A stretch of DNA of 64,000 nt, taken from IMG/VR virus record IMGVR_UViG_3300045999_010033, positions 1 through 64,000 of that record. The stretch is one strand, 5' to 3'. A program made the translations under genes and the position numbers. The stretch comes from a virus. The first letter of the stretch is position 1. Each line of letters opens with the position of its first letter. The notes below the pieces were generated by a model. It saw nothing but the letters and a program-made list of their open reading frames with translations, had not been told where the DNA came from and did no database searches. Of this stretch, positions 14,011-58,132 are shown one piece after another.

Positions 14011-14421
14011 TTAGATGTTAGCGATAATCCAATCGGCCTGAGCCTTATTCCGAACGTTGAAAAGTTCCTTCAAACCTTTACGAATTTCGGAATGGAATTT
14101 TTTCGGAATCACACCCATTTTAGTCGGGAACTCACGAATGAAGTCACGCATACCCAGTTCCTCATCACGGAACATATCAAAGAATTTGCGAGCCTTCACA
14201 ATCTCGCTCTTAGATTTACATTCGATTGTGGTTACACGGCCATTCCAATGTTTGAACGTAACCGTGGCGGATATCTTACCGCCCTTACGCTGCGGAATTT
14301 TTGAACCCGCGAAGTTTTTAACCGGATTAGCAGCGGCCCTCTCAAGGATAGAAGGCGAAGAAGTGGATAAGCGGAAATCTTGGAATTGTAACGTACCTTT
14401 CATATTAGAGTTTTTTATCAT
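14011..14421 (-). CDS. hypothetical protein (downstream of conserved promoter repeat copy A)
   Basis: ORF track; conserved upstream repeat at 14430-14570. Confidence 0.5.
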   Translation of the reverse strand: MIKNSNMKGTLQFQDFRLSTSSPSILERAAANPVKNFAGSKIPQRKGGKISATVTFKHWNGRVTTIECKSKSEIVKARKFFDMFRDEELGMRDFIREFPTKMGVIPKKFHSEIRKGLKELFNVRNKAQADWIIANI

Positions 14422-14429
14422 ATCACCAC

Positions 14430-14570
14430 CTCATTTGGGGATACTCCCCAAAGTTAAGGCTTATTTTTCATACTACAATGGGCTTTTTGATAAAAGTTTT
14501 CGAAATTTTTCGGGGTTTTGTTAGAAATTATCTAATGCCCCTTGATAATCAACGGCTTATGCTTCCCTGA
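14430..14570 (-). promoter_or_regulatory. conserved upstream repeat copy A (TAACTTTG -7-like element, GTTAGAAATTATCTAA and TTGATAATCAACG palindromes)
   Basis: About 130 nt conserved with 32505-32662 and 48945-49100, each immediately upstream of a minus-strand gene start. Confidence 0.6.
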
Positions 14571-16785: not shown

Positions 16786-16789
16786 ATCT

Positions 16790-17227: not shown

Positions 17228-17769
17228 ATATTTTGTGTCAATGAACTATTGGGGTGTATATTTACACTACTCGTAACATTCATACTACCACTTATATTAC
17301 CATAATACGCGGGATTAACTATTTTTTTTGAATACCGCGAGGATACACTCTGTCTTGGTGTAAACGGTCCATTTAGTATTGTTGATATACTAGCAGATGT
17401 ACTCCCACTAAACATGGGTATGAAATTCTCATCATCAATCATTCCCTTTATTACATGTCCCAACACATCGGGGGCATACAATGATTCGATTGGCATTAAC
17501 CAAGTGCGTGGATTTTTAACGGTAAACGCCCGGTCTCTATATTCTAATCGAATTAGACAATTATCAGTATGATCAAATGGGTCTACACGAATTATCCTAT
17601 CTATTATAAGCCACCACTGTCCTAATACTTTATCATCATACGCACTCCAAAACAATTTATACTCATCCGGATAAACAATCACATTACGATTACGTCCATC
17701 TTCGACTGGAATAGTAGGGAATACTTTTTCTAGATTATTTATATTTAGTAACTTATTCATTGGTTTCAA
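17224..17769 (-). CDS. family C paralog 6
   Basis: MNKLLNINNLEKV. Confidence 0.5.
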   Translation of the reverse strand: MKPMNKLLNINNLEKVFPTIPVEDGRNRNVIVYPDEYKLFWSAYDDKVLGQWWLIIDRIIRVDPFDHTDNCLIRLEYRDRAFTVKNPRTWLMPIESLYAPDVLGHVIKGMIDDENFIPMFSGSTSASISTILNGPFTPRQSVSSRYSKKIVNPAYYGNISGSMNVTSSVNIHPNSSLTQNI

Positions 17770-17771
17770 AA

Positions 17772-18155
17772 TTAAACTCCACGTGGAATGTAGTCCTCTA
17801 CTCCTGCCATATTTAAAATTTCAGATACCAATCGGACGTAATTCTTTAATTTGGATATGGGTATATTAAATCGACGTGTATGAGCAATCGGATTTGTACT
17901 TCCATCTACGATTTCATTTGTATTGAAACCTATCGTAACACATCGTATCGAATCTGGACTTATATGCTGTATATACCTGCTTATGTTTACTCTACACTCT
18001 TTTATTTTAATCCCATCATTTGTTCGACATTCAAAGTATATCCAATAGAAATCTCTATCTTCTCCGCAATGGAAATTGTAAAAGTTGTCATGTGCATATG
18101 TTCGACAGGCGTGACATGCCTTCTCTATATTATTTATAGTCAATATATTGCTCAT
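17772..18155 (-). CDS. family C paralog 7
   Basis: MSNILTINNIEKA. Confidence 0.5.
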   Translation of the reverse strand: MSNILTINNIEKACHACRTYAHDNFYNFHCGEDRDFYWIYFECRTNDGIKIKECRVNISRYIQHISPDSIRCVTIGFNTNEIVDGSTNPIAHTRRFNIPISKLKNYVRLVSEILNMAGVEDYIPRGV

Positions 18156-18160
18156 ATCCT

Positions 18161-27104: not shown

Positions 27105-28598
27105 TCACTTCAATTTAGAACGAATCTCATCGAAGGTAATCCGATTGTGGAATGTACCATCTTTGTAGATAGTATTCAACGCACCATGTCGTTCTTCTTC
27201 CCAAGATACTTTATCCTTCAGTTCATAGTTTTTATGATGAAGTTTACCCAATGAATCGGATTCCATTACTTCAACTACCTGCAACAAACCAGTAGCAGAT
27301 TTCTTTGTACCATCATCGGTGATAGGGTCTTTGAAGATTTCTCTACCTTCTTCGTTCACTTCAACATAAGTAGCCTTCATAGCGAAACCGAATGTATCGC
27401 GTGTGTTGTACTGATATGTGAATGAACCCACACCGAACACAATGTTAGTCGAAGCGAATCCCTTACTAGCGAGCCTTTGGCAAATTTCCTCAGCCCTCTC
27501 AAGCGTAATAGAGTCACCATAGATTGCTCCAATGTGAGGGTCTAATACTTTGTAACCCTGCTCATTGATTGTACCGCCAAACACATCCCAAAGCAATTCA
27601 ATCACACCTTTATATGAAGGATGTGTTGCTTGTTCCGCCGAGTACATATCAGGCTTTGTGTTTAAACCACACACAATATCGGTAGGATTACCACTATCAG
27701 GTCTGATTACCAATTTACCATCACGTGCCATAATCTTATCTTTCAGTACAACAACGTGCTCCGTACATACTTTCCACAAGTCCCAAGTATCGGATACAAC
27801 CGAAAGGATACCGGTGGGATATGTGTCCAACAATCTACTGAACGTTCCGATTTCATCATCTTTACTACCTGCACACATTACACTATGTTCGGTTGCATTT
27901 ACACTACCAACAACCATACCTTTTGCTCCATAGAATTTGCGAGCACCGTGAATTACTGGAAGACTATCCGACCCCAAGAACGATGTGGCATGTCCAAGAC
28001 CAGAACTGATTGTTACATCAATACTATCAAGACCACGCATTGAGAAGTCATGTGCCTGCCAATCAACAAACCACGCACGTTCCTTGTCCGTTTTATCCTG
28101 CCACTTCGTCAATACTTTACGATATTGATGTGCTATGGTAGCGGATGTCATAGGCTTCCAAAGCAAGTTAGAAATAATAGTTTCCAAATAGTTCGTAATC
28201 CAATAGAAATCGGGGTGAGTATTACGAATGGTCAGAACCGGCACCTTAATAGGAACGGTAGTACCTTCGGTGATTGCTTTCACTTCAATCGGAAGATAAC
28301 CCAAATCGTGCAACCTTTCAAAGTGCGAAACATCATAGTCAGTACCAAGGTAAAGACTCAGTTCCTCTTTGATTTCAGCGATAACTACATCCTTTGGCTG
28401 ACTGAAAAATTCCTTTTCAAAAGCCTCGTGGATTTCCATCATAACCATTTGCTGTCCAAACGATACGACTTCATCACATCCTTTAGGAGCGTGTTTGTTA
28501 CTACGCGGTGTGAAGTTTGAATATACCATAGTCGTACCTTTGGGATATTGTTGATGGTGTCCTGTCTTGTAACCGTCAGTAAGAAGAAGCGGATTCAT
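27105..28598 (-). CDS. nicotinamide phosphoribosyltransferase family protein (NAMPT/NadV-like; candidate Namat of NARP1)
   Basis: 497 aa; N-terminal 'LLTDGYKTGHHQQYP' matches the NAMPT 'DSYK.THYKQYP' signature. Confidence 0.8.
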   Translation of the reverse strand: MNPLLLTDGYKTGHHQQYPKGTTMVYSNFTPRSNKHAPKGCDEVVSFGQQMVMMEIHEAFEKEFFSQPKDVVIAEIKEELSLYLGTDYDVSHFERLHDLGYLPIEVKAITEGTTVPIKVPVLTIRNTHPDFYWITNYLETIISNLLWKPMTSATIAHQYRKVLTKWQDKTDKERAWFVDWQAHDFSMRGLDSIDVTISSGLGHATSFLGSDSLPVIHGARKFYGAKGMVVGSVNATEHSVMCAGSKDDEIGTFSRLLDTYPTGILSVVSDTWDLWKVCTEHVVVLKDKIMARDGKLVIRPDSGNPTDIVCGLNTKPDMYSAEQATHPSYKGVIELLWDVFGGTINEQGYKVLDPHIGAIYGDSITLERAEEICQRLASKGFASTNIVFGVGSFTYQYNTRDTFGFAMKATYVEVNEEGREIFKDPITDDGTKKSATGLLQVVEVMESDSLGKLHHKNYELKDKVSWEEERHGALNTIYKDGTFHNRITFDEIRSKLK

Positions 28599-28621
28599 AA
28601 TATATGTGTTTATTGTTTGAA

Positions 28622-29524
28622 TTAAATTAAGAAATTGGTAAATACATTGAACTGGTGTGTTATGATTTCATCAGCTTCAATATCTTTGTAAGAGTTTGTT
28701 GTTATAATTTTATTAAAATGTGGAGTAAGTACGTCCAAACCGGCGGAGAAGATACCGTGAGTAACTACCAAATAGATTTGAGCCGTAGGTAATTGTTCAC
28801 GTATTGCTTTAGCCAATTCAATAAAGGTACGTCCTCCATCACAAATATCATCAATGATAACATACTTTAATGGTACATCTGTCTTACTAATCGGTAGATT
28901 CGGTACTTCCGTTTTTATGATTTGCCCCGTCTTTATATCACGGATTTTATTCGCCGTAGCAATTGATTGAACTCCCAATGCTTTAGCTACATCAAATGTT
29001 TTTTTGTATGCGCCGGAATCGGGGCTTATCAAACATAATTCGTCTGGATTAAAGGTTGAGCCTGATATTTTGGATACAGCGAAGTTGATAAATTGATAGT
29101 ATGTATTGGTTGCTTTTTTAAGTCCATTCACACACGCTTCAATTACATCCGAATGTGGATCTAATACCTTAACCCTATCAAAGTCCAAAGAGTTGATAAC
29201 TGGAGAAATAACATCTTTTACATAATTGATTCCACCCTCAACAAATTTTCTATCGGAACGAGCTCCTATAAAGTAAGGAACTGATAAATCAATCTTCATT
29301 GTTTTGTTCAATCCTCTAATTGCTTTCACTCCACAAATAATCAATTCCAAATCGGAAAAGTTATTTAGACGAGATACTATCGTTACATTAGATGTACCAT
29401 GTCGGATTTTATCATGTTCGGAATTGGGAATTTCTAAACTTTGCTGCCCATCGGGGAATTTTGATACCTTATATAAAAGGTTTTCTATTCTATTTGCTGT
29501 GGGATTTGTAAGGTCTAATTTCAT
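28622..29524 (-). CDS. ribose-phosphate pyrophosphokinase family protein (Prs-like; candidate ADP-ribose pyrophosphokinase Adps)
   Basis: 300 aa; 'VIIDDICDGGRTF' PRPP-binding motif; immediately upstream of the NAMPT-like gene. Confidence 0.6.
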   Translation of the reverse strand: MKLDLTNPTANRIENLLYKVSKFPDGQQSLEIPNSEHDKIRHGTSNVTIVSRLNNFSDLELIICGVKAIRGLNKTMKIDLSVPYFIGARSDRKFVEGGINYVKDVISPVINSLDFDRVKVLDPHSDVIEACVNGLKKATNTYYQFINFAVSKISGSTFNPDELCLISPDSGAYKKTFDVAKALGVQSIATANKIRDIKTGQIIKTEVPNLPISKTDVPLKYVIIDDICDGGRTFIELAKAIREQLPTAQIYLVVTHGIFSAGLDVLTPHFNKIITTNSYKDIEADEIITHQFNVFTNFLI

Positions 29525-29529
29525 AACTT

Positions 29530-29733
29530 TTATTTTTGTTTGTTTTTACCAAGTAATCGAACTCCTGTCACTTCATCGGTCCCAACACACGAAACCGGCA
29601 TGCCATCATCGTAGACAGTGCCTATATTGAACTGGACATTATCTATATCGTATTTGTCCGAAAAATGGTCTTTCAATATTTTTCTAACTTCGGTCGCTGT
29701 TAGTTCGATTGTTATATCTTCTCTGATTTTCAT
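29530..29733 (-). CDS. hypothetical protein
   Basis: ORF track. Confidence 0.4.
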   Translation of the reverse strand: MKIREDITIELTATEVRKILKDHFSDKYDIDNVQFNIGTVYDDGMPVSCVGTDEVTGVRLLGKNKQK

Positions 29734-29912
29734 AAACTATCTTTAATTGTATTTATAAGGAATGTAATTAATAACCATATTAAAAGAATAAGGAGTACAC
29801 CAAGAACTGCTATTATAACCATACCTAATACTCTCGGACTAGTTAATCCAAGTATTAAGAGTATTACCATTATAATTGCTGCTAATACGCCGGAGTTTTT
29901 GAGTAGTTTCAT
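29730..29912 (-). CDS. small membrane protein
   Basis: Two TM helices. Confidence 0.4.
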   Translation of the reverse strand: MKLLKNSGVLAAIIMVILLILGLTSPRVLGMVIIAVLGVLLILLIWLLITFLINTIKDSL

Positions 29913-29918
29913 AATTGT

Positions 29919-31145
29919 TTATTTTTCGTGTTTCAATAAAAAAGTATTTGATATTACTTTGAATGAGATAGTTCTATCTAAACTACGAATCACTACACCC
30001 TCCCTATCAAAGTTTGGATTAAGTACCGATTTAGCATCAGCGTAACTCAACAATTCACTCACATCATTCGGTAAGATAAAGTTTGTATCTAAAACCGGCA
30101 CAGTCTCCAACCCAAAGGTATGTTCCATCGTAGCCATAAACATCGGAAGGCCATAATAGGTTTGGTTATCAATATCAAAGATGTTAAAGAACCTTACGGT
30201 CTGACCTTTTATCTTATATGGATTACCCTGAATACCCTCACCGATTAACTCACCCTGAATGGAAAGGTTCTTACCATAACTCCTAAGTTTGTTTTCCAAG
30301 TCAAGCTCTCTAGCCACCTTCCAAAATGTGTTTTCCGTTTTAGGTCGTTCAATGCCATCATCACACATAACCATACCGGGTACGAATGGTTCAGGTTCAC
30401 TCAATTCCAAATTACGGCTACACACTCCAAACACACCATCTTTGTAATAGAACGTTGCTGAACTACCATCAAGCTTTTCCGTTACATAGAACTGATGCTT
30501 TGATTGTAATCTCCAGCCTTCATATTCTTTTGTTAAGTTTTGTACACGCTCTTCATCGGTCTTTCTAATGAATGATGGGAACAACCCTTTCACTTTGCCG
30601 GATAGTTCGGCCGGTATTGGTGGCTCATATTTAGTGATACCCAACCTTTCAGTTACATCTTCACCGTCTACTATGGTGATAAGTCCTTTATATAATGTAC
30701 TATCTAACATAGTAAGTGGTAACAACAAACCTTGTGAAACCTGTCCACGCAATCGAATCGTTTTCAATCTGAATCCCTCACTACCATCTTTCATTTTCTT
30801 ATATGAAGATTTACGAAGAAACTCAAACTCATCACAAATCGGTAAGAACGAATCAACTTCACAATAAACACAAAGGTCACCCGGCTTATACTCGCCCTTT
30901 TTAGTTACTACCTTCCATCCGCCAACAACGGCAACTTCGATAGCATCCGCACCATCAATCGGTTGGATATCGGTAATCGTTCTTATACTTGCTAACTTCC
31001 TATCGGTCATAATTACGGAATTTTGTTCGTTTACAAATCTATCATTTTCGGTGAATCCGGCTGAATCGTATTCCGGCACATCATCTTCACTCATTGCTTG
31101 TAAGGCCATATCTTGCCATTCTTTCATTTCATCTTTCATATCCAT
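29919..31145 (-). CDS. ATP-dependent RNA ligase family protein (KxDG nucleotidyltransferase)
   Basis: Motif I 'TEKLDGSSATFY'; 408 aa. Confidence 0.55.
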   Translation of the reverse strand: MDMKDEMKEWQDMALQAMSEDDVPEYDSAGFTENDRFVNEQNSVIMTDRKLASIRTITDIQPIDGADAIEVAVVGGWKVVTKKGEYKPGDLCVYCEVDSFLPICDEFEFLRKSSYKKMKDGSEGFRLKTIRLRGQVSQGLLLPLTMLDSTLYKGLITIVDGEDVTERLGITKYEPPIPAELSGKVKGLFPSFIRKTDEERVQNLTKEYEGWRLQSKHQFYVTEKLDGSSATFYYKDGVFGVCSRNLELSEPEPFVPGMVMCDDGIERPKTENTFWKVARELDLENKLRSYGKNLSIQGELIGEGIQGNPYKIKGQTVRFFNIFDIDNQTYYGLPMFMATMEHTFGLETVPVLDTNFILPNDVSELLSYADAKSVLNPNFDREGVVIRSLDRTISFKVISNTFLLKHEK

Positions 31146-31330
31146 TATTTTATTTTTGAAGCGTTGTTATCTAATGGATGTATTGTGTTGCAATTTTGAC
31201 AACCTATATAAACAATCTGATATTTTTCATTGGTATCATCATCTACTTCGGTTGAAATTTTGTAATCAAACATATCGTTTTGACCACAATTACCACATAT
31301 GATGTGTAATTTAGAATGTGCCATAATAAT

Positions 31331-31681
31331 TTATTTTCCATAACCAACAAAACCAATTTCAAGTTCTTTTACATAACCTTTTTTCACTAGGTGCGGATAT
31401 ACATCATTCAACCAAAAGTTTTGAACTCTATCCAATTCCTTACTTATTTGGGCATGCATTTCATCCATTCCGAATCCAAATCCGAATCCATATCCAGATA
31501 CCGATTTACCGATTTCTTTCAGAGCCGTTTCATCATCATCGTTATACGCTTTATTGATAGCCTGAAATATATTCTCTTTCATTTCACTTGCTACCTTATC
31601 GTTATGTTCATACATTTTATCATTCCACGGCCTCGTAATCTCAATACCATACTGATTACCCAATACTTTTACCTTACTCAT
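31331..31681 (-). CDS. hypothetical protein
   Basis: ORF track. Confidence 0.45.
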   Translation of the reverse strand: MSKVKVLGNQYGIEITRPWNDKMYEHNDKVASEMKENIFQAINKAYNDDDETALKEIGKSVSGYGFGFGFGMDEMHAQISKELDRVQNFWLNDVYPHLVKKGYVKELEIGFVGYGK

Positions 31682-31692
31682 ATTTTTATATT

Positions 31693-32520
31693 TTATTTTT
31701 CGTAAACACTAAATGTACTATTCATAGGAATGATGAACGGATTGTTAGCCGTATCAATTTTGTTGCGAACCTTTTTGAATTTCAGTCCAACAATAACACC
31801 CGGCTCATCAATGTATCTCATATCGTATTCATCGCCATCAATTACTTTGTAACCCATAAATGTGGAAGGGAGTCGTTTACCTTCAAACACCATAGCTACA
31901 CGCCCTTTCCTTTCACTCAACAATCTTTCACAATCAATCATATTGTATCCGCTGAACGAATATGTGAGGTCATAGTTCGAATATTGATTTAACAAACGAA
32001 AACGTTTAGCCACCTTTGTATAATCATAAAAGGTAACGTTAGAAAACCACTCCAATATATTCTTACCATCCAATTTGAAAGATTGAGGGTCAATATCAGA
32101 TGTACCATTTATCCTTACCGAAAAACGATACCCAAGTGTATTGGCTTCCAAATGTGCTTTGGTGATTTCGGTAACCAACCATTTCATAAAAAACTCACGA
32201 TGTTCAAAGAACAATTTTGTTTTAGCGATACGAGATTTATTGATACGATTTTCTTTCACATCAATACGATTGTGACCAGATTCGGCCAAACACGCATCAC
32301 GACATTCTTTCGTACTCATTGGACACACATTGTATCCACTCACAGACGCGGGAGCAAGATACAGAATATAGGTACGTTCATTGTACTTTAATCCTTTAGC
32401 GATTTTAGATGAAGATGCTACTGAACCAAGATAGGAAAGGGCAGTCAGTTTTTTAGCTTGAGAAATGTTTGTAAATACCATATTCATAATGTGTGATTTT
32501 TTAGACATAGTGGGTCTCAT
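31693..32520 (-). CDS. hypothetical protein (likely true start at second Met, MSKKS)
   Basis: First 4 codons lie inside the conserved promoter repeat; 275 aa. Confidence 0.5.
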   Translation of the reverse strand: MRPTMSKKSHIMNMVFTNISQAKKLTALSYLGSVASSSKIAKGLKYNERTYILYLAPASVSGYNVCPMSTKECRDACLAESGHNRIDVKENRINKSRIAKTKLFFEHREFFMKWLVTEITKAHLEANTLGYRFSVRINGTSDIDPQSFKLDGKNILEWFSNVTFYDYTKVAKRFRLLNQYSNYDLTYSFSGYNMIDCERLLSERKGRVAMVFEGKRLPSTFMGYKVIDGDEYDMRYIDEPGVIVGLKFKKVRNKIDTANNPFIIPMNSTFSVYEK

Positions 32521-32662
32521 TGTGTGTTACCACACAAAGTTAGGGCATTTTGGGGACATTTCAATGGGCGTTTTGTTAAAAGTTTTCGAAATTTTTGGGG
32601 ATTTTGTTAGAAATTATCAAATAGCCATTGATAATCAACGTGTTATAACTGGTTGATTTTGG
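32505..32662 (-). promoter_or_regulatory. conserved upstream repeat copy B
   Basis: See copy A. Confidence 0.6.
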
Positions 32663-32756
32663 GGAAAATAGGATTTTTATTGAGAATCAATTGATTACAT
32701 ATGTAAAAATACTATAATAAAAAACGGATGAGCATTTACGCCCATCCGTCACATAG

Positions 32757-32990
32757 TTAGTTTTCGATCTGTTCATCTTTTGAGAATAATTCCTCATGGT
32801 ATTTTTTAAATGAATCTCTTTTATTCAAAGGATGATCATCGTGCCATTCACCAATTTCTCTATGTTCCATCTTTACAACATGGGGTGATATACAATAATT
32901 CGGATAACGTTGATTTTCTATCACTACGGGAATATCATCGCCCACTTCATCGAAATCCACAATCATAAGTTCAACCTTGTAAACTCTCAT
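32757..32990 (-). CDS. hypothetical protein
   Basis: ORF track. Confidence 0.4.
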   Translation of the reverse strand: MRVYKVELMIVDFDEVGDDIPVVIENQRYPNYCISPHVVKMEHREIGEWHDDHPLNKRDSFKKYHEELFSKDEQIEN

Positions 32991-33005
32991 AATTTATATT
33001 TTTAA

Positions 33006-33503
33006 TTAAACGTTTTGTTCTAGCTCATCAATGTAATTATCCCAACGTTTCAATTCAGCCACTTTTTTTATTCTACAATTTTTCAAATAATTGTTTATGT
33101 ATCCGATAATGTTACCAGCTCCAATCGGATTGGCGGAATGAACATAAATATCTGGGATGGGAATACCAGTATCCATACTATATTTAACCAACCACTTTGC
33201 GCAATCGTATCCGGTCTTTTCAATTATGTTATCGTAATCAATTTTGTAATTATCTTTCACGTTTCTATAATATTCCAAAATAGCGGATTCACCCAAATCG
33301 TGGTCAAAAGAAATCCTTTCAATATTTTCCAAACCATACTGATGTACTGCCATACAAAATTCATCATAACTACGAACAACAATCCAATTTTGATCCATTG
33401 GTGTTCTCATATCATCAAGATATAACCAAAATGTTTTTTTCATATAACTGTTTTTATTTTTACATATGAAACTCCAACTCCGCAGTATCAAAGTTGTAGT
33501 CAA
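33006..33503 (-). CDS. hypothetical protein
   Basis: ORF track; 3' end overlaps next gene. Confidence 0.45.
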   Translation of the reverse strand: MTTTLILRSWSFICKNKNSYMKKTFWLYLDDMRTPMDQNWIVVRSYDEFCMAVHQYGLENIERISFDHDLGESAILEYYRNVKDNYKIDYDNIIEKTGYDCAKWLVKYSMDTGIPIPDIYVHSANPIGAGNIIGYINNYLKNCRIKKVAELKRWDNYIDELEQNV

Positions 33504-34245
33504 AATTTATCGGAGGATTAACACATTCGTATCTGATATTAAGATTACTTGAATTGAACGTTTGGCAATCGTACCAATCTTTCAGTCCGATTACTTTGTG
33601 CCCCATGCCCTCATGAATATGTCCACAAAAATGTAAATGGGGTTTCACTTCACGCACTCTATGATAAAGATCGGCGCATCCAACATTTTCATTCGTGTTC
33701 AATGTTCGGTCGTTGTATCCATACATCGGAGTATGTGTTATGAGTATGTGAGTATCCATAGGAATCAAATTCCAATGTTCATTCATATCATATCCTCTAT
33801 CCGAATTAAATCCCCATCCACTTCCGAAGCTTGGTGAGTATGGAGAGCCCCATATGTTTATTCCTTCAATACAAACTGAACTATTTTCTAAATAGTGTAC
33901 ACCATTTTTCAGATTACCGAGTAATGTTTTTAACCAATGCGGCTTATCATGTTGAGCAAGTTTAACCCATTCAGTATTGTATCCATTGAATATGTGTCTA
34001 TCAATCCATTCCGACTTAACACGAAACTTTCTTTCACTATCGAACACAATGTCGTGATTACCGGCTATGAATACTTTGTATTTGTATGGTTGGTCGGATA
34101 ACCAACCGATGAAATCTTCTACTTCATCTTTTCTACCGATACTAGTGAAGTCGCCGGAATGAATAAGTATATCGCCACCGGGCAACGTCAACTCACGATG
34201 ATATGTGTGAGTATCGGATATTGCTGTTATGCGAAACTTTTTCAT
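33460..34245 (-). CDS. calcineurin-like metallophosphoesterase
   Basis: 'ISDTHTYH', 'GDFTS', 'GNHD' motifs. Confidence 0.6.
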   Translation of the reverse strand: MKKFRITAISDTHTYHRELTLPGGDILIHSGDFTSIGRKDEVEDFIGWLSDQPYKYKVFIAGNHDIVFDSERKFRVKSEWIDRHIFNGYNTEWVKLAQHDKPHWLKTLLGNLKNGVHYLENSSVCIEGINIWGSPYSPSFGSGWGFNSDRGYDMNEHWNLIPMDTHILITHTPMYGYNDRTLNTNENVGCADLYHRVREVKPHLHFCGHIHEGMGHKVIGLKDWYDCQTFNSSNLNIRYECVNPPINFDYNFDTAELEFHM

Positions 34246-37863: not shown

Positions 37864-38025
37864 AATTTAATAGATTTTTTTGGTTTGTGTGTCGATACAC
37901 AAATTTACGACAATTTTTTCAAATAACAATGGCTTTTTAAAAATATTTTTTAAGGCACTGAGAATCAATGAGTTATGTATATAACCCTGATGTAATGTAT
38001 AACTCGTTGATTTCCAATAAGCGGG

Positions 38026-42154: not shown

Positions 42155-42313
42155 ATGTGTCTGTATTATTATAGGCAGAATTATCCCAAACTTTGTTACA
42201 CAAAGATACGTAAAGTTGCCGATATAACCAAATAATTTTGTAACCCATTGAAAATCAATGAGTTACACTAAAAAGTAAAGTTATACCTTGACTTTTTGGG
42301 TATAAAAGTAAAG

Positions 42314-42769: not shown

Positions 42770-42828
42770 ACAACACGTTTTTACATTGTTACAAAGTTTT
42801 AAATTTTACATAATACAAATACTAATAG

Positions 42829-42910
42829 TACCCCGAATCGGACTCGAACCGATACGCCTTTCGGCACCGCATCCTAAGTGCGGCGTGACTGCCAATTCCA
42901 CCACCAGGGC
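42829..42910 (-). tRNA. tRNA-Leu(TAG)
   Basis: Manual fold: AC stem CCGCA/TGCGG, loop CTTAGGA, long V-arm, T-arm ATCGG-TTCGAGT-CCGAT. Confidence 0.7.
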
Positions 42911-43006
42911 AATTAAGCGGAGAGTGATGGTAACGATCCATCTTGAGTTTTACCCCAGCCTCGGTTTAGCAAACCGGCCCCTTACCTTTCGGGCAACTCT
43001 CCATTG

Positions 43007-43087
43007 TACCTCGAATCGGACTCGAACCGATACGTCTTTCGACACTTGATTTTGAGTCAAGCATGTCTACCATTCCATCACCAAGGC
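43007..43087 (-). tRNA. tRNA-Leu(CAA)
   Basis: AC stem CTTGA/TCAAG, loop CTCAAAA, long V-arm. Confidence 0.7.
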
Positions 43088-43198
43088 GAATCCTGCTCTT
43101 TTATCTACAACTTAATGTAGTCGAACATCCAACACTATAACATACGTTTTATAGTTGCTACCATTGGAGGCAGGCAGAATTGAATCTATGTTCACTGC

Positions 43199-43357
43199 TG
43201 ACAGGGTTGGATTCGAACCAACAAACCGAGATTCAGTAACGAGCACATAGTGCTGCAGCATTGTGGTCAACCCATACTCATTACCTATTTCTATATCGGC
43301 GACTGCGAGACGAGCAGCTGTGTTTGCCAAGATATTACATCGTTTCACCACCTGTCA
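43199..43357 (-). ncRNA. 159-nt tRNA-like gene with large internal insertion (acceptor TGACAGG/CCTGTCA, T-arm GTTGG-TTCGAAT-CCAAC)
   Basis: 3' half canonical; only complementary 5' acceptor strand lies 159 nt upstream, exactly 7 nt after tRNA-Ser 3' end. Confidence 0.4.
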
Positions 43358-43364
43358 ATCTATG

Positions 43365-43447
43365 CGGAGAGGAAGGGAATCGAACCCCCAAGGCTTTTAC
43401 ACCCGACTGTTTTCAAGACAGCGTCCTCGTCCATTCGGACCCTCTCC
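43365..43447 (-). tRNA. tRNA-Ser(TGA)
   Basis: Acceptor GGAGAGG/CCTCTCC, AC loop CTTGAAA, long V-arm. Confidence 0.7.
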
Positions 43448-43455
43448 ATTATAAG

Positions 43456-43528
43456 AGCGGAAGGCCGGGTACGATCCGGCAACCTCAGCCTTGGCAAGGC
43501 TGCGCTCTACCAATTGAGCTACTTCCGC
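43456..43528 (-). tRNA. tRNA-Gly(GCC)
   Basis: Acceptor GCGGAAG/CTTCCGC, D-arm AGCTCAATTGGTAGAGC, AC loop TTGCCAA. Confidence 0.75.
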
Positions 43529-43742
43529 AGTTTCCCCACCTTGAGATTACAGATGAGTAGTTATTTCGGTTTTCTATTTCTTAAAACCCGCGAGGCATCC
43601 CTCATTAAAACAGCCAACACTACTGGGAGAGATTGTGTCAGTCTCTTTATCCCACGATGTCTCACTCTAGCCGCAGACATTCTGCTAACCTATTGTTAAA
43701 TGAGTCTTAGGTCAAAGACTACTGAGTATCTCTTACTCATTG

Positions 43743-43814
43743 AGCGAGAAGTCGGAATCGAACCGACATATCCAGCTTGGAAGGCTGGAGTAATAACCGT
43801 TATACTATTCTCGC
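43743..43814 (-). tRNA. tRNA-Gly(TCC)
   Basis: Acceptor GCGAGAA/TTCTCGC, AC loop CTTCCAA. Confidence 0.75.
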
Positions 43815-43820
43815 AGTTAG

Positions 43821-43894
43821 TGGAGATGGAGGGATTCGAACCCCCGACTTTTAGAATGCAAATCTAACGCTCTAGCCAACTGAGCTACATCCCC
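43821..43894 (-). tRNA. tRNA-Ala(TGC)
   Basis: Acceptor GGGGATG/CATCTCC, AC loop TTTGCAT. Confidence 0.75.
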
Positions 43895-43933
43895 ATTGAT
43901 TATCGTTCTATGGACGTTTTTAATTTTTAATTA

Positions 43934-44323
43934 TTATAATACTTTTTCTGATTTTAGTTTTGTTTCAAATTTGTCAAATCGGGAATCAATATAAGAACGA
44001 TTTTCATCAATTCTTTTATGAATTTCCGGCTCAACCTGATCATGAACATTTTTCTGAAATTCATCAATACGTTTATGGATTTCACCCGAAACTGAATCAA
44101 TATCGCGATGTACATCAGGTAGTATGTGTTCATACACATCCCTTTTAAATTCATTGAGTTCTCTATTTGTATTTTCAAACATTGAATGCGTGTTTGAATA
44201 CACATCATCGAATCTCTTAACGTGCTTACTTACCATTATATTTGCCCTCACGATGCCGATAACCATACCAATTAGTATGACTGTAGCTATCCCAAGAACA
44301 TAGGCAATATACATTTGTTCCAT
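43934..44323 (-). CDS. membrane-anchored protein with internal repeats (start trimmed to MEQMYIAY)
   Basis: Listed ORF extends N-terminally over a tRNA-like gene; TM helix then repeated 'IHKRIDE/HRDIDS' units. Confidence 0.5.
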   Translation of the reverse strand: MEQMYIAYVLGIATVILIGMVIGIVRANIMVSKHVKRFDDVYSNTHSMFENTNRELNEFKRDVYEHILPDVHRDIDSVSGEIHKRIDEFQKNVHDQVEPEIHKRIDENRSYIDSRFDKFETKLKSEKVL

Positions 44324-44360
44324 AGTTTGTTTTCTCCTATATGTCAAAGAACGATAATCG

Positions 44361-44471
44361 TGCCCCAGGCGGGGGTCGAACCCGCACTCGCTTTCAGCGA
44401 ACAAGATTAACGCCGCGACGTGTTGAAGCTTGCGTTAAGTCTTGCATGTCTACCTATTCCATCACCAGGGC
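44361..44471 (-). tRNA. tRNA-Leu(TAA)-like gene with 26-nt insertion in the anticodon loop
   Basis: Acceptor, D-arm, AC stem CAAGA/TCTTG, V-arm TCGC-TGAAA-GCGA and T-arm all fold; loop is 33 nt CTTAA[..]AA with internal 7-bp hairpin TTAACGC/GCGTTAA. Confidence 0.5.
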
Positions 44472-44526
44472 CCATACCTACCTTAATAGGTATGTTTGTC
44501 TATAATGTAAATATAGTAAAAGTTTT

Positions 44527-45594
44527 TTAATTATCCAAATCTTTCCGAAAAGGTTTTGCGTATTTAGGGCGAATACATTTCCATATAATAGAATCGTAAT
44601 CCCTCCCATCTAACATAGAAAATAATATTGATGCATGATTATAACGGATTGCTTTGATTGCAAACTCTTTTCTGCTCAAATTTTCACTACGAATGATTGA
44701 GAATATTTCCAAATAATCACGTTTAATATTTTCAAATCTAACTACCAAGTCTTTTACGGTATCCTTTACCCACGTATCAAATTCGTCCGGCACTCTTTCC
44801 AATAACTCATTCAAATCACCACCGGTCCGCAACAATTCCCAGATATCTACATTCGAAACATTGGTGATTATCTTATGAAGTCTTACATACTCTTCACCTT
44901 TGATTTTCATTCTCTTCCCACCTTTGAAACGTATTACATAACCTTCGGCATCATTTGAAATCATATCCTTCAACTTAGTGAAGTCAGTAACACCATTGTA
45001 CTTTCTAACAACTCTTACATCGGTAAAAAGTGCTACTGATTTAGTCAAAGTTTCAAATTCAATTTCGTCCAAAGTATCTCTATCATATGCACCCAACAAT
45101 ACCAAACCCTCAAATGGGTAGCGGCAGACTATCCGATTCTCATCATATATGATTTCAAAAAGGTAAGTCCAATTTTTTCTCAATCCAGTTGTAGGATAGT
45201 TTTTCAATATAGATAATCCCTTCAACATTTCAGTTGCCTTAACGGCTTGCTCTGAAACGAATGAACCTCTCGTTGCTACTATCCAATCTCCGTTATAGTA
45301 AAATGCAATTCCTAAAGAACCGTCCATCTTTTCAAAGACTTCAAATGATTCGTTTGGAATTTCACTATTGGATAATTCTTCCATATTGAAAAATTTTGGA
45401 AATGGTTTGGCTACCACAGTGCCTTCATTATCCAAAACCAATCCACGGCAATCCAATGTAACTGCATCCCACAATCGGTCGTATTGGCACGTTCTGCTGT
45501 AATTGTAGATTGATAAAGGTAACGTTGGATGGTCTTGCTTAACTATCAATCCTCGTCCGATATAATCGTTCAATATGTTTAATGGATATTTCAT
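44527..45594 (-). CDS. RNA ligase family protein (KxDG; Rnl2/DRB0094-like)
   Basis: 'FEKMDGSLGIAFY' motif I; 355 aa; upstream of Pnk-like kinase. Confidence 0.6.
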   Translation of the reverse strand: MKYPLNILNDYIGRGLIVKQDHPTLPLSIYNYSRTCQYDRLWDAVTLDCRGLVLDNEGTVVAKPFPKFFNMEELSNSEIPNESFEVFEKMDGSLGIAFYYNGDWIVATRGSFVSEQAVKATEMLKGLSILKNYPTTGLRKNWTYLFEIIYDENRIVCRYPFEGLVLLGAYDRDTLDEIEFETLTKSVALFTDVRVVRKYNGVTDFTKLKDMISNDAEGYVIRFKGGKRMKIKGEEYVRLHKIITNVSNVDIWELLRTGGDLNELLERVPDEFDTWVKDTVKDLVVRFENIKRDYLEIFSIIRSENLSRKEFAIKAIRYNHASILFSMLDGRDYDSIIWKCIRPKYAKPFRKDLDN

Positions 45595-45995
45595 AATTTT
45601 ACACTAAAACGTTTCCGCATTTTTTCCAAAGTCTCATCCGGTACACCATGTACGGATTTATTACCATGTCTATTTTCTACAATCAATGATACAACGGTGT
45701 ATCCATAGCTCTTTGCTAACTTCAAATATGGTTCAAGTTCCCTTTCGGTAGTTGCCGTATTGGATACTACAATCTCTTGTCCATACTGAGTCGTTTCACT
45801 CATTTGCATCAATTCCTCAACACGCTTTTGACAATCCAAATGGGCTTCATGCAATTTCGAAGCGTCAAAATTGTAGTTACCGTTTGAATCGTAAAAGTAT
45901 TGGTCTGCCTCAAACACATTATTTGAAAACATATATTTAGCAAATGAGCTTTTACCACTACCGGGTAAACCACGTAATATGATTAATGTTTTCAT
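45591..45995 (-). CDS. polynucleotide 5'-kinase (T4 Pnk kinase-domain-like)
   Basis: 'MKTLIILRGLPGSGKSSFA' closely resembles T4 Pnk N-terminus 'MKKIILTIGCPGSGKSTWA'; 134 aa. Confidence 0.65.
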   Translation of the reverse strand: MKTLIILRGLPGSGKSSFAKYMFSNNVFEADQYFYDSNGNYNFDASKLHEAHLDCQKRVEELMQMSETTQYGQEIVVSNTATTERELEPYLKLAKSYGYTVVSLIVENRHGNKSVHGVPDETLEKMRKRFSVKL

Positions 45996-46009
45996 ATGCT
46001 CTTTTTATA

Positions 46010-46348
46010 TTATTGTATAGATAAAAGATAAGTTTTTAATTTTTTCAAAACAACTTCGATGTTAAATGCTATTCGATATGGTCGTTTTAAACGGTGTTCA
46101 TCTATATTAATGTAAGTCACACGATGCCATCCCATAGCAAATAGCTGATATGTTCCATCGGAAAGGGGAGTTTTATATAAGATAACTTCCACAATCGGTC
46201 CGAAGGAGTTATTCTGTGCGTATGGTATATTTCTAAACCTAAATGCATAGCTAGGTCTACCTGCTACAAGCACTTCACCTACACTTTCTATTACGTGCCC
46301 ATCGCACTCCATTCCAACTGCCCTATCAATATTTTTTATGATTAACAT
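46010..46348 (-). CDS. hypothetical protein (paralog pair D, member 1)
   Basis: ML.IKNIDR..GM.C.G...YQLFAMGW..V. Confidence 0.5.
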   Translation of the reverse strand: MLIIKNIDRAVGMECDGHVIESVGEVLVAGRPSYAFRFRNIPYAQNNSFGPIVEVILYKTPLSDGTYQLFAMGWHRVTYINIDEHRLKRPYRIAFNIEVVLKKLKTYLLSIQ

Positions 46349-46357
46349 TTGTGAAAT

Positions 46358-46687
46358 TTATTTGTGTGATTCAATCCAATGTTGTAACTTCTTCAATACA
46401 GTTTTAATTCTACCAGCCAAACAATGGGCATGACGTATGTCGGATTCATCAACGTAAATAAACGTTACTTTCTGCCATCCCATAGCAAATAGTTGATACT
46501 TTCCATCAGAATTAGGAACTCTCTCCAATACAACTTCAACGATTGGACCACGAAGGCTACTCTGAACCCAAGGTATATCAAATTTAAATGTGTATCTAGT
46601 TTTGGATGCGTTTTGTCCAGCATCCATTACATCAATCCCATTACAAAACATTCCGATAATCCTATCAATATTTTTTATAACTAGCAT
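46358..46687 (-). CDS. hypothetical protein (paralog pair D, member 2)
   Basis: Paralogy. Confidence 0.5.
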   Translation of the reverse strand: MLVIKNIDRIIGMFCNGIDVMDAGQNASKTRYTFKFDIPWVQSSLRGPIVEVVLERVPNSDGKYQLFAMGWQKVTFIYVDESDIRHAHCLAGRIKTVLKKLQHWIESHK

Positions 46688-46703
46688 TTTTGCAATTTAT
46701 TTA

Positions 46704-46886
46704 TCAGATGTACTTACTAATATCTTCTTTCTCAATCTCCACTATCGAGTCATCAAGGATTTCTTTGTTATCGTGTCCGACTACAATGGCGGTATAGAAC
46801 TTGCCATCCAGTTCATAGACTTGATAAGCTGAGTCTTTTACCCATTCCCCTTCTCCAATTAAGGTTGCTTTATCTAGGTTTATCAT
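46704..46886 (-). CDS. hypothetical protein
   Basis: ORF track. Confidence 0.4.
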   Translation of the reverse strand: MINLDKATLIGEGEWVKDSAYQVYELDGKFYTAIVVGHDNKEILDDSIVEIEKEDISKYI

Positions 46887-47278
46887 TGTTTTTGTTTTAC
46901 TATTTCAATGAGTTTACGGAGACAAGCAAGTTCTGCTTCTTCTTGTCCATCAAAACTCCCAACCCAAATAGATTCATCTTTATTTTCATCTTGAATCCAT
47001 ATTTCGTACACCTTAGAAAAGGTATCAGGCATTTCAATTACTACTGATTTTCTATACCTAACAAAACTAATAAATAGCCCATAGTTCTTACGAAAGAATC
47101 TGAATGACTGTGAAAATGTTGGACTGAGAGTTATACCATCGCCTTGTCTATCAAAAGACTTTGAATAAAACTTTTTGTTTAGGAAATGTGCAAAACACGG
47201 TTCATCAAACCCAAGTTGCTTCAACTCAAACGCATCTTTGAATGGGATAAAATCTTTCATTGTTTTTGTTTTAGTCAA
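46883..47278 (-). CDS. hypothetical protein (paralog of 40162..40530)
   Basis: Paralogy. Confidence 0.5.
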   Translation of the reverse strand: MTKTKTMKDFIPFKDAFELKQLGFDEPCFAHFLNKKFYSKSFDRQGDGITLSPTFSQSFRFFRKNYGLFISFVRYRKSVVIEMPDTFSKVYEIWIQDENKDESIWVGSFDGQEEAELACLRKLIEIVKQKQ

Positions 47279-47449
47279 TTAAATTTAAAATCGCTACATA
47301 AAGAGCGTAAACGATAACACATAAAACTAAAATCACAATAATCATCATCGTTTCATACGGATATGTTTTTTCACTAATAAGCAATAACCCAAACACTAAT
47401 AATACCAAAAATGTGTAAAATGCTGCTTTAAGTTTCTTTTTCATAACTT

Positions 47450-48306: not shown

Positions 48307-48960
48307 TTATCGCTCTTTAAGTTCTAATGAATCTAAGCTGAAGGGGCAGTACAGCAAAGTTGGATTCTTTTTCTGAATATCAACATTAGGATACTTCTTT
48401 TTGAACTCTATAACATCAAATCTATTAGTAATAAGATGAAATCCATTTTTAGTTGGAATTTCCGCAATACATTTATATCCTTCCGGTCTTAATACGTTGA
48501 TAAATGCCCGGATATCTTCTCTAACAATTTCATCCTTTGTATCAATATCGATAATCCAACGCTTCTCATAAGTTTTCAGTTGCCCAACAACCGAATCAAA
48601 TAAGTTGTTTTGAACGAACTGACCATCTTTGAGTCTTTGTGCCAAAGCCATCATCATATCCAATGAAACATCTTTATGATTTTGTTTCTGAATATGGATG
48701 TAGGCACGTGCTTTAAACATCTCACAAAGTTGGATTATTTCATCATAACGTTTTTCCAAATATTGAATACTGGAAACGCAATATGTTTTTATTGTACGAA
48801 CCGATTGGTGATTATCCCTTTCACCTTCGGGCTGGTCCTTCTTTCTTTTGAAGATATACAACATATAAAAGTCACCCTCGTTATCGAAGTTCAGCAAAGG
48901 TTTGATTAATTCGATATTGTTTATCATACTATACGATTTTTTAGACATAGTGGGTCTCAT
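48307..48960 (-). CDS. hypothetical protein (likely start at MSKKS)
   Basis: N-terminal codons in promoter repeat copy C. Confidence 0.5.
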   Translation of the reverse strand: MRPTMSKKSYSMINNIELIKPLLNFDNEGDFYMLYIFKRKKDQPEGERDNHQSVRTIKTYCVSSIQYLEKRYDEIIQLCEMFKARAYIHIQKQNHKDVSLDMMMALAQRLKDGQFVQNNLFDSVVGQLKTYEKRWIIDIDTKDEIVREDIRAFINVLRPEGYKCIAEIPTKNGFHLITNRFDVIEFKKKYPNVDIQKKNPTLLYCPFSLDSLELKER

Positions 48961-49100
48961 TGTGTATTACTACACAAAGTTAGGGCATTCTGTGCTAATA
49001 AACAAACCTATTTGTTGAATTTTTTCTAAATTTTTGAGGACTTTGTTAGAAAAAATCTAATAGTCATTGATTATCAACGAGTTATAACTCATTGATATTC
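48945..49100 (-). promoter_or_regulatory. conserved upstream repeat copy C
   Basis: See copy A. Confidence 0.6.
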
Positions 49101-49145
49101 TATGAATTATAACGTCTATTGATAATCAATGACTTACGTGGAGAA

Positions 49146-57256: not shown

Positions 57257-57359
57257 AATTTTCAAATCTCATTTTCGTTTGATAACTCAAAGTTAAGGAA
57301 AATTTTCCAATCTACCAAATTTTTTTGTTATCCATTGAAAATCAACGAATTGATTATAA

Positions 57360-57810: not shown

Positions 57811-58132
57811 CCACATAGAGAATCACATTCTATTTTAATCCCACGATGTGTGCGGGAGCGGTTACGCAGCTACTGCGTACTCAGCGTTGGCGTATGTGTT
57901 GCCAGTTATTCTTCGATACAATATTAAGGGATAGTATCATTTCCCTACTTGTGATGGTAACACTCACATACCAATCAATTACCAATACACGCCCATATTT
58001 ATAAGAACTATATATCTCCCATTTTTGGTCGATAACCAAAGTTACTACTTTTTTTTGGATTTACCAAACATTTCGGAAAATATTTTTTAAATCGTTGAAA
58101 ATCAACCGATTACGTATTAAAAAAAGAAATAT

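Follow-up and report, generated by a model that had tools for sequence, protein, structure and literature searches.

A repeated composite cassette with a Bacteroidota-type promoter and operator-like palindromes precedes three genes of a large uncultivated phage

Three genes share an upstream cassette

The DNA analyzed here, a viral stretch of 64,000 nucleotides (positions 1 to 64,000 of the IMG/VR record IMGVR_UViG_3300045999_010033; hereafter, the window), carries all of its long open reading frames (ORFs) on the minus strand, on which the features described below also lie. Three of its genes are preceded by similar sequence: a conserved 130-aa gene of unknown function (14011..14403), a gene of the GP88 family (PF17338; 31693..32487), and a phrog_14949 gene (48307..48927). 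A repeat search recovered the upstream regions as a single family of three direct copies of 131 nt, A (14430-14560), B (32516-32646), and C (48955-49085), each standing upstream of a gene, with 79% and 61% identity relative to the reference copy; when the three regions were aligned with MAFFT, the mean column identity was 77%, in agreement with the first-pass annotation of this DNA, which had described them as highly similar. Our analysis indicates that the three repeats are probably copies of one composite regulatory cassette that heads independent transcription units.

The window is part of a large uncultivated phage, since IMG/VR contigs of up to 310-320 kb carry relatives of its proteins and a 221-kb contig encodes a protein (P0001) that is 100% identical to the product of the 130-aa gene over 130 aa. 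The promoter type described below points to a member of the Bacteroidota as host. Megablast with 6 kb of the window against the INPHARED phages returned zero matches, and tblastn with the 717-aa protein of the window found two distant phages and nothing else. Comparisons were made with numbered loci (L001 to L444) from relatives and genome contigs.

The cassette spans about 200 bases, and the order and distances of its modules are fixed across the three copies. With the start site assumed about 5 nt past the -7 box, a palindrome with the consensus TTAGA-N5-TCTAA (pal2) is centered at about -84 in all three, and palindromes of the form TTGAT-N-ATCAA (pal1) are centered at about -103, -122, and -155. 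The -7 box and both palindromes, previously proposed for each copy, were all found on the minus strand. In unit B, the functional unit runs from the distal palindrome at about 32690 to 32488, the base before the proposed start codon, and is longer than first annotated. The gene upstream of it ends in an intrinsic terminator (32723..32750; GACGGATGGGCGTAAATGCTCATCCGTT followed by TTTTATT, a 12-pair stem with six G-C pairs and a T-run), and a terminator-like hairpin with a T-run can be read from the sequence at the same place in L443 and L444. A canonical terminator directly before unit B therefore marks the 5' limit of this transcription unit. The distal pal1 core TTGATTCTCAA (32680..32690, centered at about -155) includes AATCAATTGATTA, which fits the integration host factor (IHF) consensus WATCAANNNNTTR. 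It is followed by a proximal pal1 cluster, AATCAACCAGTTA / TAACACGTTGATTATCAATG (32626..32658), in which sequences matching the IHF consensus stand back to back at about -122 and -103 and which includes the CGTTGATTATCAA site at 32640-32628; by pal2, TTTGATAATTTCTAA (32607..32621); and by an A-tract block, CAAAATCCCCAAAAATTTCGAAAACTTTTAACAAAACGCCC (32566..32606), with A-runs about every 10 nt. The promoter (32535..32565) comprises ATTG at 32565-32562, a 19-nt spacer, and TAACTTTG at 32542-32535, and it runs into a hairpin, TTGTGTG-GTAA-CACACAA (32520..32537; -6.3 kcal/mol as DNA, z -2.9, shuffle P 0.0005). A 5' leader (..TGAGACCCACTATGTCTAAAAAATCACACATT; 32488..32519), once read as MRPTMSKKSHI, carries a TAAAAAA tract 16 nt before the proposed ATG of the GP88 gene at 32487 (MNMVFTNISQAKK..), behind which lie an RNA ligase, a PRPP-synthetase-like gene, and NAMPT.

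Element A has the same order of modules, preceded by three extra pal2 sites (14757-14743, 14726-14712, and 14694-14680) spaced 31-32 bp start to start. Its pal1 sites are TTGAGGATCAA (14614-14604), CATTGATATTCAG (about 14584-14572), and CGTTGATTATCAA (14554-14542), and its proximal pal2, TTAGATAATTTCTAA (14521..14535, centered at about -84), is a perfect palindrome. The promoter (14479-14449) consists of ATTG at 14479-14476, 19 nt, and TAACTTTG at 14456-14449; the 5' arm of the hairpin TTTGGGGA-GTA-TCCCCAAA (14452-14434) overlaps the TTTG of the -7 box; and the leader (14433-14404) contains a 3-codon mini-ORF (ATGAGGTGGTGA) and an A-rich tract before the ATG at 14403 (MKGTLQF..). Element C begins with a distal pal1 core, TTGATTATCAA (49119..49129), directly after the stop codon of an endolysin-like gene (49146-49604), and continues with the proximal cluster TATCAATGAGTTA / TAACTCGTTGATAATCAATG (49065..49097), which includes a CGTTGATTATCAA-type site at 49079-49067, and with pal2, TTAGATTTTTTCTAA (49046..49060, centered at about -83). 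The proximal pal1 layout of element B is shared by element C and by L443/L444. The promoter of element C (49006-48975) has TTTG at 49006-49003, 20 nt, and TAACTTTG at 48982-48975; its hairpin, TTGTGTA-GTAA-TACACAA (48977-48960), is a compensatory variant of the element B stem; and the proposed start of the phrog_14949 gene is the ATG at 48927 (MINNIELIKPLL..), with a metallophosphoesterase, a PNK-like kinase, and an Rnl1-type RNA ligase behind it. At the 3' end, the cassette has the order AATGAG, TATGnnTAAAAAA, 9-10 nt, and ATG.

The two operons at 27105-34245 and 44527-48960, both behind pal2-bearing cassettes, hold RNA-repair and NAD-salvage genes, among them PHA02142/Rnl-type and Rnl1-type RNA ligases, a PNK-like AAA_33 kinase, metallophosphoesterases, cREC_REC, NAMPT, and the PRPP-synthetase-like gene.

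A palindrome confined to the three cassettes

A motif scan of the 64-kb window, an approach that the first-pass annotation had put forward for the whole genome, found the promoter pair enriched and pal2 confined to the three regions. Sites with up to two mismatches from TTAGAAATTATCTAA number five or six in the window, all within the three cassette intergenic regions. Orthologues of the 130-aa gene with 50-100% protein identity (L300-306 and L434-440) keep the proximal pal2 together with pal1, the A-tract block, the promoter, and the hairpin. The three distal copies, 31-32 bp apart, are kept in L305/L306, L434, L439, and L440, and L437/L438 have two pal2 sites 32 bp apart. Among the orthologues of the 130-aa gene, the sequence between modules diverges. 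GP88 orthologues carry a perfect pal2 at the same place, TTAGATAATTTCTAA in L444 (90%) and TTAGATGTTTTCTAA in L443 (84%). Across L300-306, L434-440, and L443-444, the half-sites TTAGA and TCTAA are invariant, and the 5-nt centers vary (TAATT, TATTT, AATCT, TGTTT, AAATA). Since the half-sites stay constant, the center and flanks change, and extra copies recur 31-32 bp apart, these comparisons support the view that pal2 is the footprint of a dimeric DNA-binding protein, and they strengthen its candidacy as an operator. The term does not hold in its classical overlapping sense, given that pal2 at about -84 and pal1 at about -103 both lie far 5' of the promoter core.

Searches for the combination beyond close relatives found little. 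The exact composite pattern of pal1 and pal2 had 0 matches in IMG/VR; a shorter pal2 pattern occurred in 117 IMG/VR stretches, two of them with a pal1 core upstream, and only L359 resembled a relative; and a metagenome scan for pal2 with the A-tract pattern gave 10 chance matches and no relatives. G/C stretches flank pal2 (32600-32650 in unit B), with GGGG..CCCC in copy A, CCCA..TGGG in L305, and GGCA..TGCC in L439; the sides switch, and the flanking G/C stem pairs in about five of eight copies only.

With respect to known operators, the lambda-type OR/OL arrays share with pal2 the 15-bp inverted repeats with invariant half-sites, the position upstream of a small conserved gene, and the presence of several copies on the same helical face, here 31-32 bp apart. 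They differ in that the sites described here lie off the promoter core, no repressor-like gene was identified, and this phage looks lytic and is very large.

The long region upstream of gene 14403 could also be read as a replication origin or partition-like site, of which elements B and C would be partial copies. The region contains iteron-like repeats (AAATGAATATAAG) at 14805-14870, a second array with a 19-nt unit lies at 5140-5276, and at orthologous positions the repeat unit changes while the layout stays (CCTAACCG in L434/L440, TAACG in L359), as would be the case for specificity-determining iterons; IHF-consensus sites and multiple phased palindromes are also found in the region. However, iterons and a pal2 array are missing from elements B and C, the genes identified beside the region include no initiator or replication gene, and all of its modules are equally compatible with a complex promoter. 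We therefore regard an origin as quite unlikely. Orthologous iteron-like arrays occur at about 2120-2290 in L305 and at about 1080-1200 in L434. The change of repeat unit is what one would expect of sites evolving together with a binding protein, and the arrays of the window and its relatives might represent an origin or the site of a second regulator.

A generic palindrome that resembles IHF sites

The first-pass annotation had counted two operator-like palindromes per copy. Whereas pal2 proved specific and conserved, the pal1 sequence TTGATAATCAA is not special to the three elements. Each copy carries CGTTGAT(T/A)ATCAA on the coding strand, and the distal core at about -155 has the form TTGATNNTCAA. 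Within the window, CGTTGATTATCAA with up to two mismatches is found 13 times against 3.6 expected, a number that 0 of 100 shuffles reach, and a pal1 core with a TAAC flank also lies 5' of the tmRNA, tRNA-Gln, 42154, and 37863 promoters. Relatives have up to four pal1 copies upstream of the GP88 orthologue, and a flank logo from 143 sites that were not pattern-selected shows an asymmetric T-A-A-C at 69-86%, with the T-A-A part at 80-86%.

The 20-mer TAACTCRTTGATTNTCAATG has at least 95 exact occurrences in IMG/VR, many of which, among the contexts read, are 15-80 nt upstream of a -33/-7 promoter. It occurs at least 120 times in one-genome-per-species contigs, mostly from Bacteroidota, the main taxa among the matches listed being Saprospiraceae, Microscillaceae, Bernardetiaceae, Flavipsychrobacter, Sphingobacteriales, Prevotellaceae, and Alistipes. 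In Bacteroidota genomes (L122-L241; e.g., L157, L197, L126, L130, and L191), the 20-mer is common; it is also present after tRNA genes with A-run and T-run flanks, in a terminator-like setting, and some metagenome-assembled genomes (MAGs) of Bernardetiaceae, Microscillaceae, Saprospiraceae, and Flavipsychrobacter contain it inside multi-copy repeats that resemble miniature inverted-repeat transposable elements (MITEs). This last context raises the question of whether the three repeats are copies of a small MITE-like mobile element that carries a promoter by chance, as pal1-containing units are multi-copy and MITE-like in some Bacteroidota MAGs. We consider this very improbable: in the alignments, the three copies are not bordered by terminal inverted repeats or target duplications, all have the same orientation directly upstream of genes, and the orthologous positions are conserved in relatives, where no empty sites were seen.

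Both arms of pal1 (e.g., AATCAACGTGTTA, TATCAATGAGTTA) fit exactly the IHF consensus WATCAANNNNTTR of Craig & Nash 1984, as cited in PMC9452768, a proteobacterial consensus that may not apply to the DNABII proteins of Bacteroidota. The window contains 28 matches to it against 8.4 +/- 3.1 expected (0 of 100 shuffles reach this number); about 15 of these are in promoter-upstream gaps, and they include sites of all three elements. Like promoter-assisting IHF sites, pal1 sites cluster 60-160 bp upstream of promoters, and the consensus is about 3-fold enriched here. They differ from IHF sites in occurring as palindromic pairs and in that many host-genome copies look like terminator hairpins after tRNA genes. 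Folded as hairpins, pal1 and pal2 reach no more than -4 to -5.5 kcal/mol; at other locations, T-runs come after pal1. Taken together, pal1 is a probable binding or bending site for a protein of the DNABII type or for another widespread protein. Literature searches on the cassette motifs returned nothing relevant apart from AATCAACGAGTTA, a predicted IHF site in Dickeya, and a search on the Bacteroides host factor A found no binding consensus.

A Bacteroidota-type promoter with a hairpin at the predicted start site

Housekeeping-sigma promoters of Bacteroidota, known from Bacteroides and Flavobacterium, have the form -33 TTTG / -7 TAnnTTTG, and transcripts usually start 4-7 nt after the -7 box. 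The assignment of the cassette promoter to this type, made when the repeat was first noticed, agrees with the sequence, in which a predicted -33 element (A/T)TTG, a spacer of 19-20 nt (ATTG with 19 nt in copies A and B, TTTG with 20 nt in copy C), and the -7 box TAACTTTG are all present in intergenic DNA before genes. The box fits TAnnTTTG, ends 14 nt 5' of the first ATG in every copy, and takes the form TA(A/T)(C/A)TTTG in orthologues; nothing at the sequence level contradicts membership of this promoter class. Across the window, TTG-N19-TAnnTTTG has 10 matches against 1.6 expected, which 0 of 100 shuffles reach, and TTG-N20-TAnnTTTG has 5 against 1.6, so that the two spacings together give 15 promoter pairs against about 3.2 expected, an enrichment of about 5-fold. 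Ten of the 15 are on the coding strand, nearly all of these in intergenic positions before genes, tRNAs, or tmRNA. Between pal2 and the promoter lies the conserved block CAAAAnCCCnAAAAATTTCGAAAACTTTTAnCAAAA, with A-runs about every 10 nt, which is also kept in L305, L434-L440, and L443/L444 and may act as an UP-element-like sequence or as bent DNA.

All three cassettes have a 7-8 bp hairpin in which the 5' arm is the TTTG of the -7 box, a feature that, to our knowledge, is not part of the described Bacteroidota consensus. Folding energies of the three hairpins, computed for DNA, are -5 to -7.1 kcal/mol (z -2.7 to -3.7). A perfect 5-8 bp stem starting from the first or second T of TTTG is present at all seven pal1-promoters of the window, compared with a stem of at least 5 bp at 7.7% of 4744 other TAnnTTT(G/A) sites in phage DNA. 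Loop length and stem start differ between hairpins, and significance was therefore assessed by per-sequence shuffles rather than by a single-register alignment: shuffling the 26 downstream nt gave P <= 0.025 for 12 of 14 promoters, seven from the window and seven from relatives. The stems vary and the pairing is kept, with GGGGA/TCCCC, GGGGG/CCCCC (L305), GTGTG/CACAC, GTGTA/TACAC, GTGTGT/ACACAC, GTTGG/CCAAC (L437), and GGTAC/GTACC (L434) among the versions found.

How such a structure would act depends on where transcription begins. Should the -7 box work in the expected way, transcription would leave out the 5' arm, and the structure would then have its effect at the level of DNA or by pairing between the nascent 5' end and the non-template strand. 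If the real start is upstream of the hairpin, it would be an RNA hairpin. On the latter premise, the element or its 3' part would be a structured RNA leader transcribed from further upstream, serving as a 5' stabilizer, a processing site, or a translational regulator near the start region. The compensatory changes that keep the pairing are in line with this, as are the T.G pair in the L437 stem, which is allowed in coding-strand RNA, and the fact that in most copies the hairpin ends exactly at AATGAG. Nevertheless, the TTTG that forms the 5' arm belongs to a near-perfect -7 box at the correct distance from a -33, so that with the usual start this arm would remain untranscribed, and no well-matching alternative promoter lies upstream. 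Furthermore, an Rfam scan of the window at the gathering threshold found only tRNAs, tmRNA, and GOLLD, and the same hairpin follows the tmRNA and tRNA promoters, where translational control is irrelevant. An RNA leader is therefore unlikely.

The hairpin is the least explained part of the cassette. One possibility is that promoters in this Bacteroidota phage group use it as a functional structure, with the loop holding the start site; it might then facilitate melting or escape, or the nascent 5' end might use it to pair with promoter DNA. The virion RNA polymerase of phage N4 uses hairpin promoters, in which the hairpin is upstream of +1 and has conserved loop bases. The structures described here share with them a 5-8 bp stem and a 3-4 nt loop at the initiation region, as well as a structure that is kept while the sequence varies, and differ in that the hairpin is fused to a canonical host-type -33/-7 promoter; an N4-like polymerase gene was not seen, and no search aimed at one was made. 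By this analogy, they may constitute host-sigma promoters with an obligatory DNA hairpin, distantly N4-like.

The shared N-terminus is a leader

The repeat had been noted to reach the first codons, and similarity does extend into ATGAGACCCACTATGTCTAAAAAATC in the 32520 and 48960 copies. The conclusion drawn from this, that the repeat explains a shared N-terminus and that the true starts are at MSKKS, survives in part: the repeat accounts for the shared residues, but these belong to the leader and not to the protein. For each of the three genes, the third ATG (32487, 48927, and 14403) is where the homologues begin, which points to true starts seven codons after the MSKKS start. For the 48960 gene, 58 homologues align from M-I-(D/N)-N, corresponding to 48927, many of them with a stop codon immediately upstream. 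GP88 homologues begin with M-N-T-M-K-F-T-T-I or similar, aligned with MNMVFTNI at 32487, and L003 and L009 have an in-frame stop four codons upstream of the GP88 start ATG; the 130-aa gene is on record from MKGT, at 14403. The earlier ATGs are not preserved: in copy A, the frame opened by the first one closes after three codons (ATGAGGTGGTGA), in L009 this ATG lies in another frame, and L443 lacks it; the second is ATA in L009, L439, and L440. Moreover, an AATGAG-like sequence also follows the tmRNA and tRNA-Gln promoters, whose genes go untranslated, and the A-rich tract TCTAAAAAA of the leader is found 7-18 nt before many start codons in this genome. The homologue starts, the lost ATGs, the AATGAG at untranslated genes, and the A-rich tract collectively suggest that the shared "N-terminus" is a shared 5' leader. 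Database entries begin at MSKKS for GP88 (271 aa) and at the third ATG for phrog_14949 (206 aa); gene callers differ on this, and the entries carry no weight either way.

Bacteroidota favor an A-rich, Shine-Dalgarno-free initiation region. In the window, TAAAAAA occurs 7-18 nt before the starts of more than 20 genes, with 50 occurrences on the coding strand against 14 on the other, and is apparently a translation-initiation signature of this phage. The tract often includes the stop codon of the previous gene (examples at 63098, 55305, 26050, 24462, 15922, and 11729).

Mosaic identity and the kinship with PeSL cassettes

Identity between the copies is distributed as a mosaic. Over pal2 and the A-tract block (alignment columns 141-180), copy B shares 37 of 40 positions with copy A; from the spacer ahead of the -7 box to within the leader, it shares 54 of 59 with copy C, and in the stretch between these only 6 of 20. 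The GP88 cassette of L444 carries the hairpin version of copy C. This pattern fits occasional exchange between cassettes, and since about 130-200 nt stay similar, the copies could recombine.

In T4-type phages, PeSLs (promoter-early stem-loops) are conserved composite elements of about 100 bp, repeated in hyperplastic regions, that consist of a stem-loop, an AT-rich region, a host-sigma promoter, a ribosome site, and a start codon (PMC2839356, PMC4122927). The sequences described here could likewise be mainly recombination modules, that is, PeSL-like terminator/promoter linkers with identity kept for shuffling, insertion, and deletion in an accessory region, and with ordinary regulatory content. 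This possibility, compatible with the regulatory reading and different from it mostly in emphasis, deserves consideration although we find it the less probable of the two. The layout is the same, the identity of the three copies is mosaic, phrog_14949 orthologues are found in many contexts with or without their own promoter, and the element C hairpin version occurs upstream of GP88 in L444. On the other hand, there are just three copies in 64 kb, pal1 and pal2 form the weak hairpins noted above while a separate GC-rich terminator serves unit B, and the cassette is kept at the same orthologous genes over 50-90% protein identity, which indicates stable regulatory use. Since relatives keep the cassette at these same genes, it seems to serve mainly in regulation and less in mobility.

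PeSL cassettes (Arbiol et al. 2010, PMC2839356; Comeau et al. 2014, PMC4122927) nonetheless appear to be the closest known kind. Common to both are a repeated composite intergenic cassette of about 100-200 bp in an accessory region of a large lytic phage; the succession of palindromes upstream, an A/T-rich region, a host housekeeping-sigma promoter, a translation-initiation region, and a start codon; and copies similar enough to recombine. In contrast to the sigma-70 -35/-10 promoter and G/C-rich terminator stems of PeSLs, the cassettes of the window have a Bacteroidota -33/-7 promoter and sequence-conserved, IHF-consensus-like palindromes, and they add a phage-specific operator, pal2, and a hairpin centered on the start site, in only three copies. 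PeSLs belong to T4-type phages, and the likeness is one of cassette layout.

A proposed mode of action and its significance

In the model that we favor, host RNA polymerase with its housekeeping sigma factor would initiate a few bases after TAACTTTG, inside the hairpin loop, and the DNA upstream would be shaped or bent by phased A-tracts and pal1 sites, the latter being common to promoters across this phage group and to Bacteroidota. A dimeric regulator would bind the phage-specific TTAGA-N5-TCTAA site at about -84 and, shared between cassettes, could couple the three units (the 130-aa gene and two RNA-repair/NAD-salvage operons) to one signal or infection time. At unit A, the three additional pal2 sites, 31-32 bp apart, may allow cooperative binding or looping. 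The transcript would begin with a short, untranslated, A-rich leader and be translated from the third ATG, and similar copies could recombine.

Several observations weigh against this model. A simple promoter model does not account for the covarying hairpin, and the real 5' end could lie upstream. The -33 element is ATTG, not TTTG, in two copies. At -84, pal2 is too distant for direct polymerase block, which leaves activation, anti-activation, or looping as options, and a repressor cannot be told from an activator. In GP88 orthologues at 75-79% identity (L001-L011), pal1 and the promoter are present without pal2, which is likewise missing at 26 GP88 loci of more distant relatives; control through pal2 would therefore be lineage-specific. 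As for the proteins involved, Pfam scans of about 135 window ORFs (105 + 30) found no helix-turn-helix (HTH) family and no cognate binder of pal2, and phmmer searches with E. coli HU, IHF-alpha, and IHF-beta and with SPO1 TF1 had no match in the six-frame translation of the window. The 130-aa gene lies downstream of the richest pal2 array, and its product might conceivably bind pal2 and so regulate its own gene, but it gave an AlphaFold2 model of moderate confidence (mean predicted local distance difference test score, pLDDT, 68.5) with no Foldseek match in the PDB at E <= 0.001, and hence no cognate regulator was identified. The window also encodes a response-regulator receiver-domain protein (60551-61408; PF00072, E 8e-27), in which the receiver domain is fused to about 160 residues with no output or other domain recognized by Pfam.

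Overall, the cassette is an orderly but fairly ordinary phage control region. It belongs to a known kind, that of repeated promoter/operator cassettes, in a host lineage for which few have been described, and only the start-site hairpin and the phylum-wide palindrome might be new biology. The sequence TAACTCRTTGATTNTCAATG may be the recognition site of a DNABII/IHF-like protein found throughout the Bacteroidota and employed at several kinds of place: ahead of phage promoters, at terminators of the host, and within MITE-like repeats. It is tempting to go further and propose that the hairpin and this palindrome are both undescribed general signals, an idea that we advance tentatively and think rather doubtful.

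The model outlines a regulon for an uncultivated jumbo-type Bacteroidota phage, in which three units, two of them RNA-repair/NAD-salvage operons, would share one operator, and the comparison of homologues corrects three start codons. Promoter annotation in related freshwater and gut phage contigs, of which there are many, could benefit from the modular architecture, and the cassette could supply expression parts for Bacteroidota. Finally, the widespread IHF-consensus palindrome and the start-site hairpin offer cheap leads for a cultivable phage-host pair of this group.

Simpler promoters and other features of the window

Four further promoters of the window have pal1 and the hairpin and are without pal2. 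That of the 717-aa gene (37863), at 37900..38012, has pal1 sites, ATTG-N19-TAAATTTG, and the hairpin TTTGTGT..ACACAAA; that of the DNA-ligase gene (42154), at 42190..42265, has pal1, TTTG-N20-TATCTTTG, and a hairpin; that of tRNA-Gln (57270..57355) has pal1, the promoter, the hairpin, and AATGAG; and that of the tmRNA gene (58020..58112) has pal1, the promoter, the hairpin, and AAATGGGAG. The tmRNA itself is at 57659-57994 with the tag GNTYANAEYAVAA, and it and tRNA-Gln are each headed by their own unit of this kind.

ARAGORN found 24 tRNA genes and the tmRNA in the window, to which Rfam adds a few tRNAs and a GOLLD RNA, so that 24-27 tRNA genes are spread across 42828-57657. The GOLLD RNA (RF02032; 55991-56405, 296.6 bits, a full-length match to the model) sits in a non-coding stretch of 1.2 kb (55986-57184) amid tRNA genes, and two near-identical TTTG-N20-TA(A/T)CTTTA promoters lie upstream of it at about 57060 and 56955. 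Three non-coding stretches (51000-51160, 51329-51446, and 52003-52239) have tRNA-like 5' and 3' ends (AGTCAGGTGGCG ... GGTTCGAATCCTGTCCTGACTAC); they were called by neither ARAGORN nor Rfam and may be insertion-bearing tRNA genes or degenerate copies.

The protein-coding genes of the window include two RNA ligases, the PNK-like kinase, phosphoesterases, NAMPT, and the PRPP-synthetase-like protein, as well as a DNA ligase, a thymidylate synthase, and ClpP. A Lys/Ala-rich ORF made of 15-nt repeats (10623-11210) gives a weak match to the histone H1-like nucleoprotein HC2 (E 3.6e-5) that falls short of the Pfam cut-off. Small paralogous genes form tandem families at 7400-8950 and 15876-18156 (repeat families D3, D5, D18, and D11).

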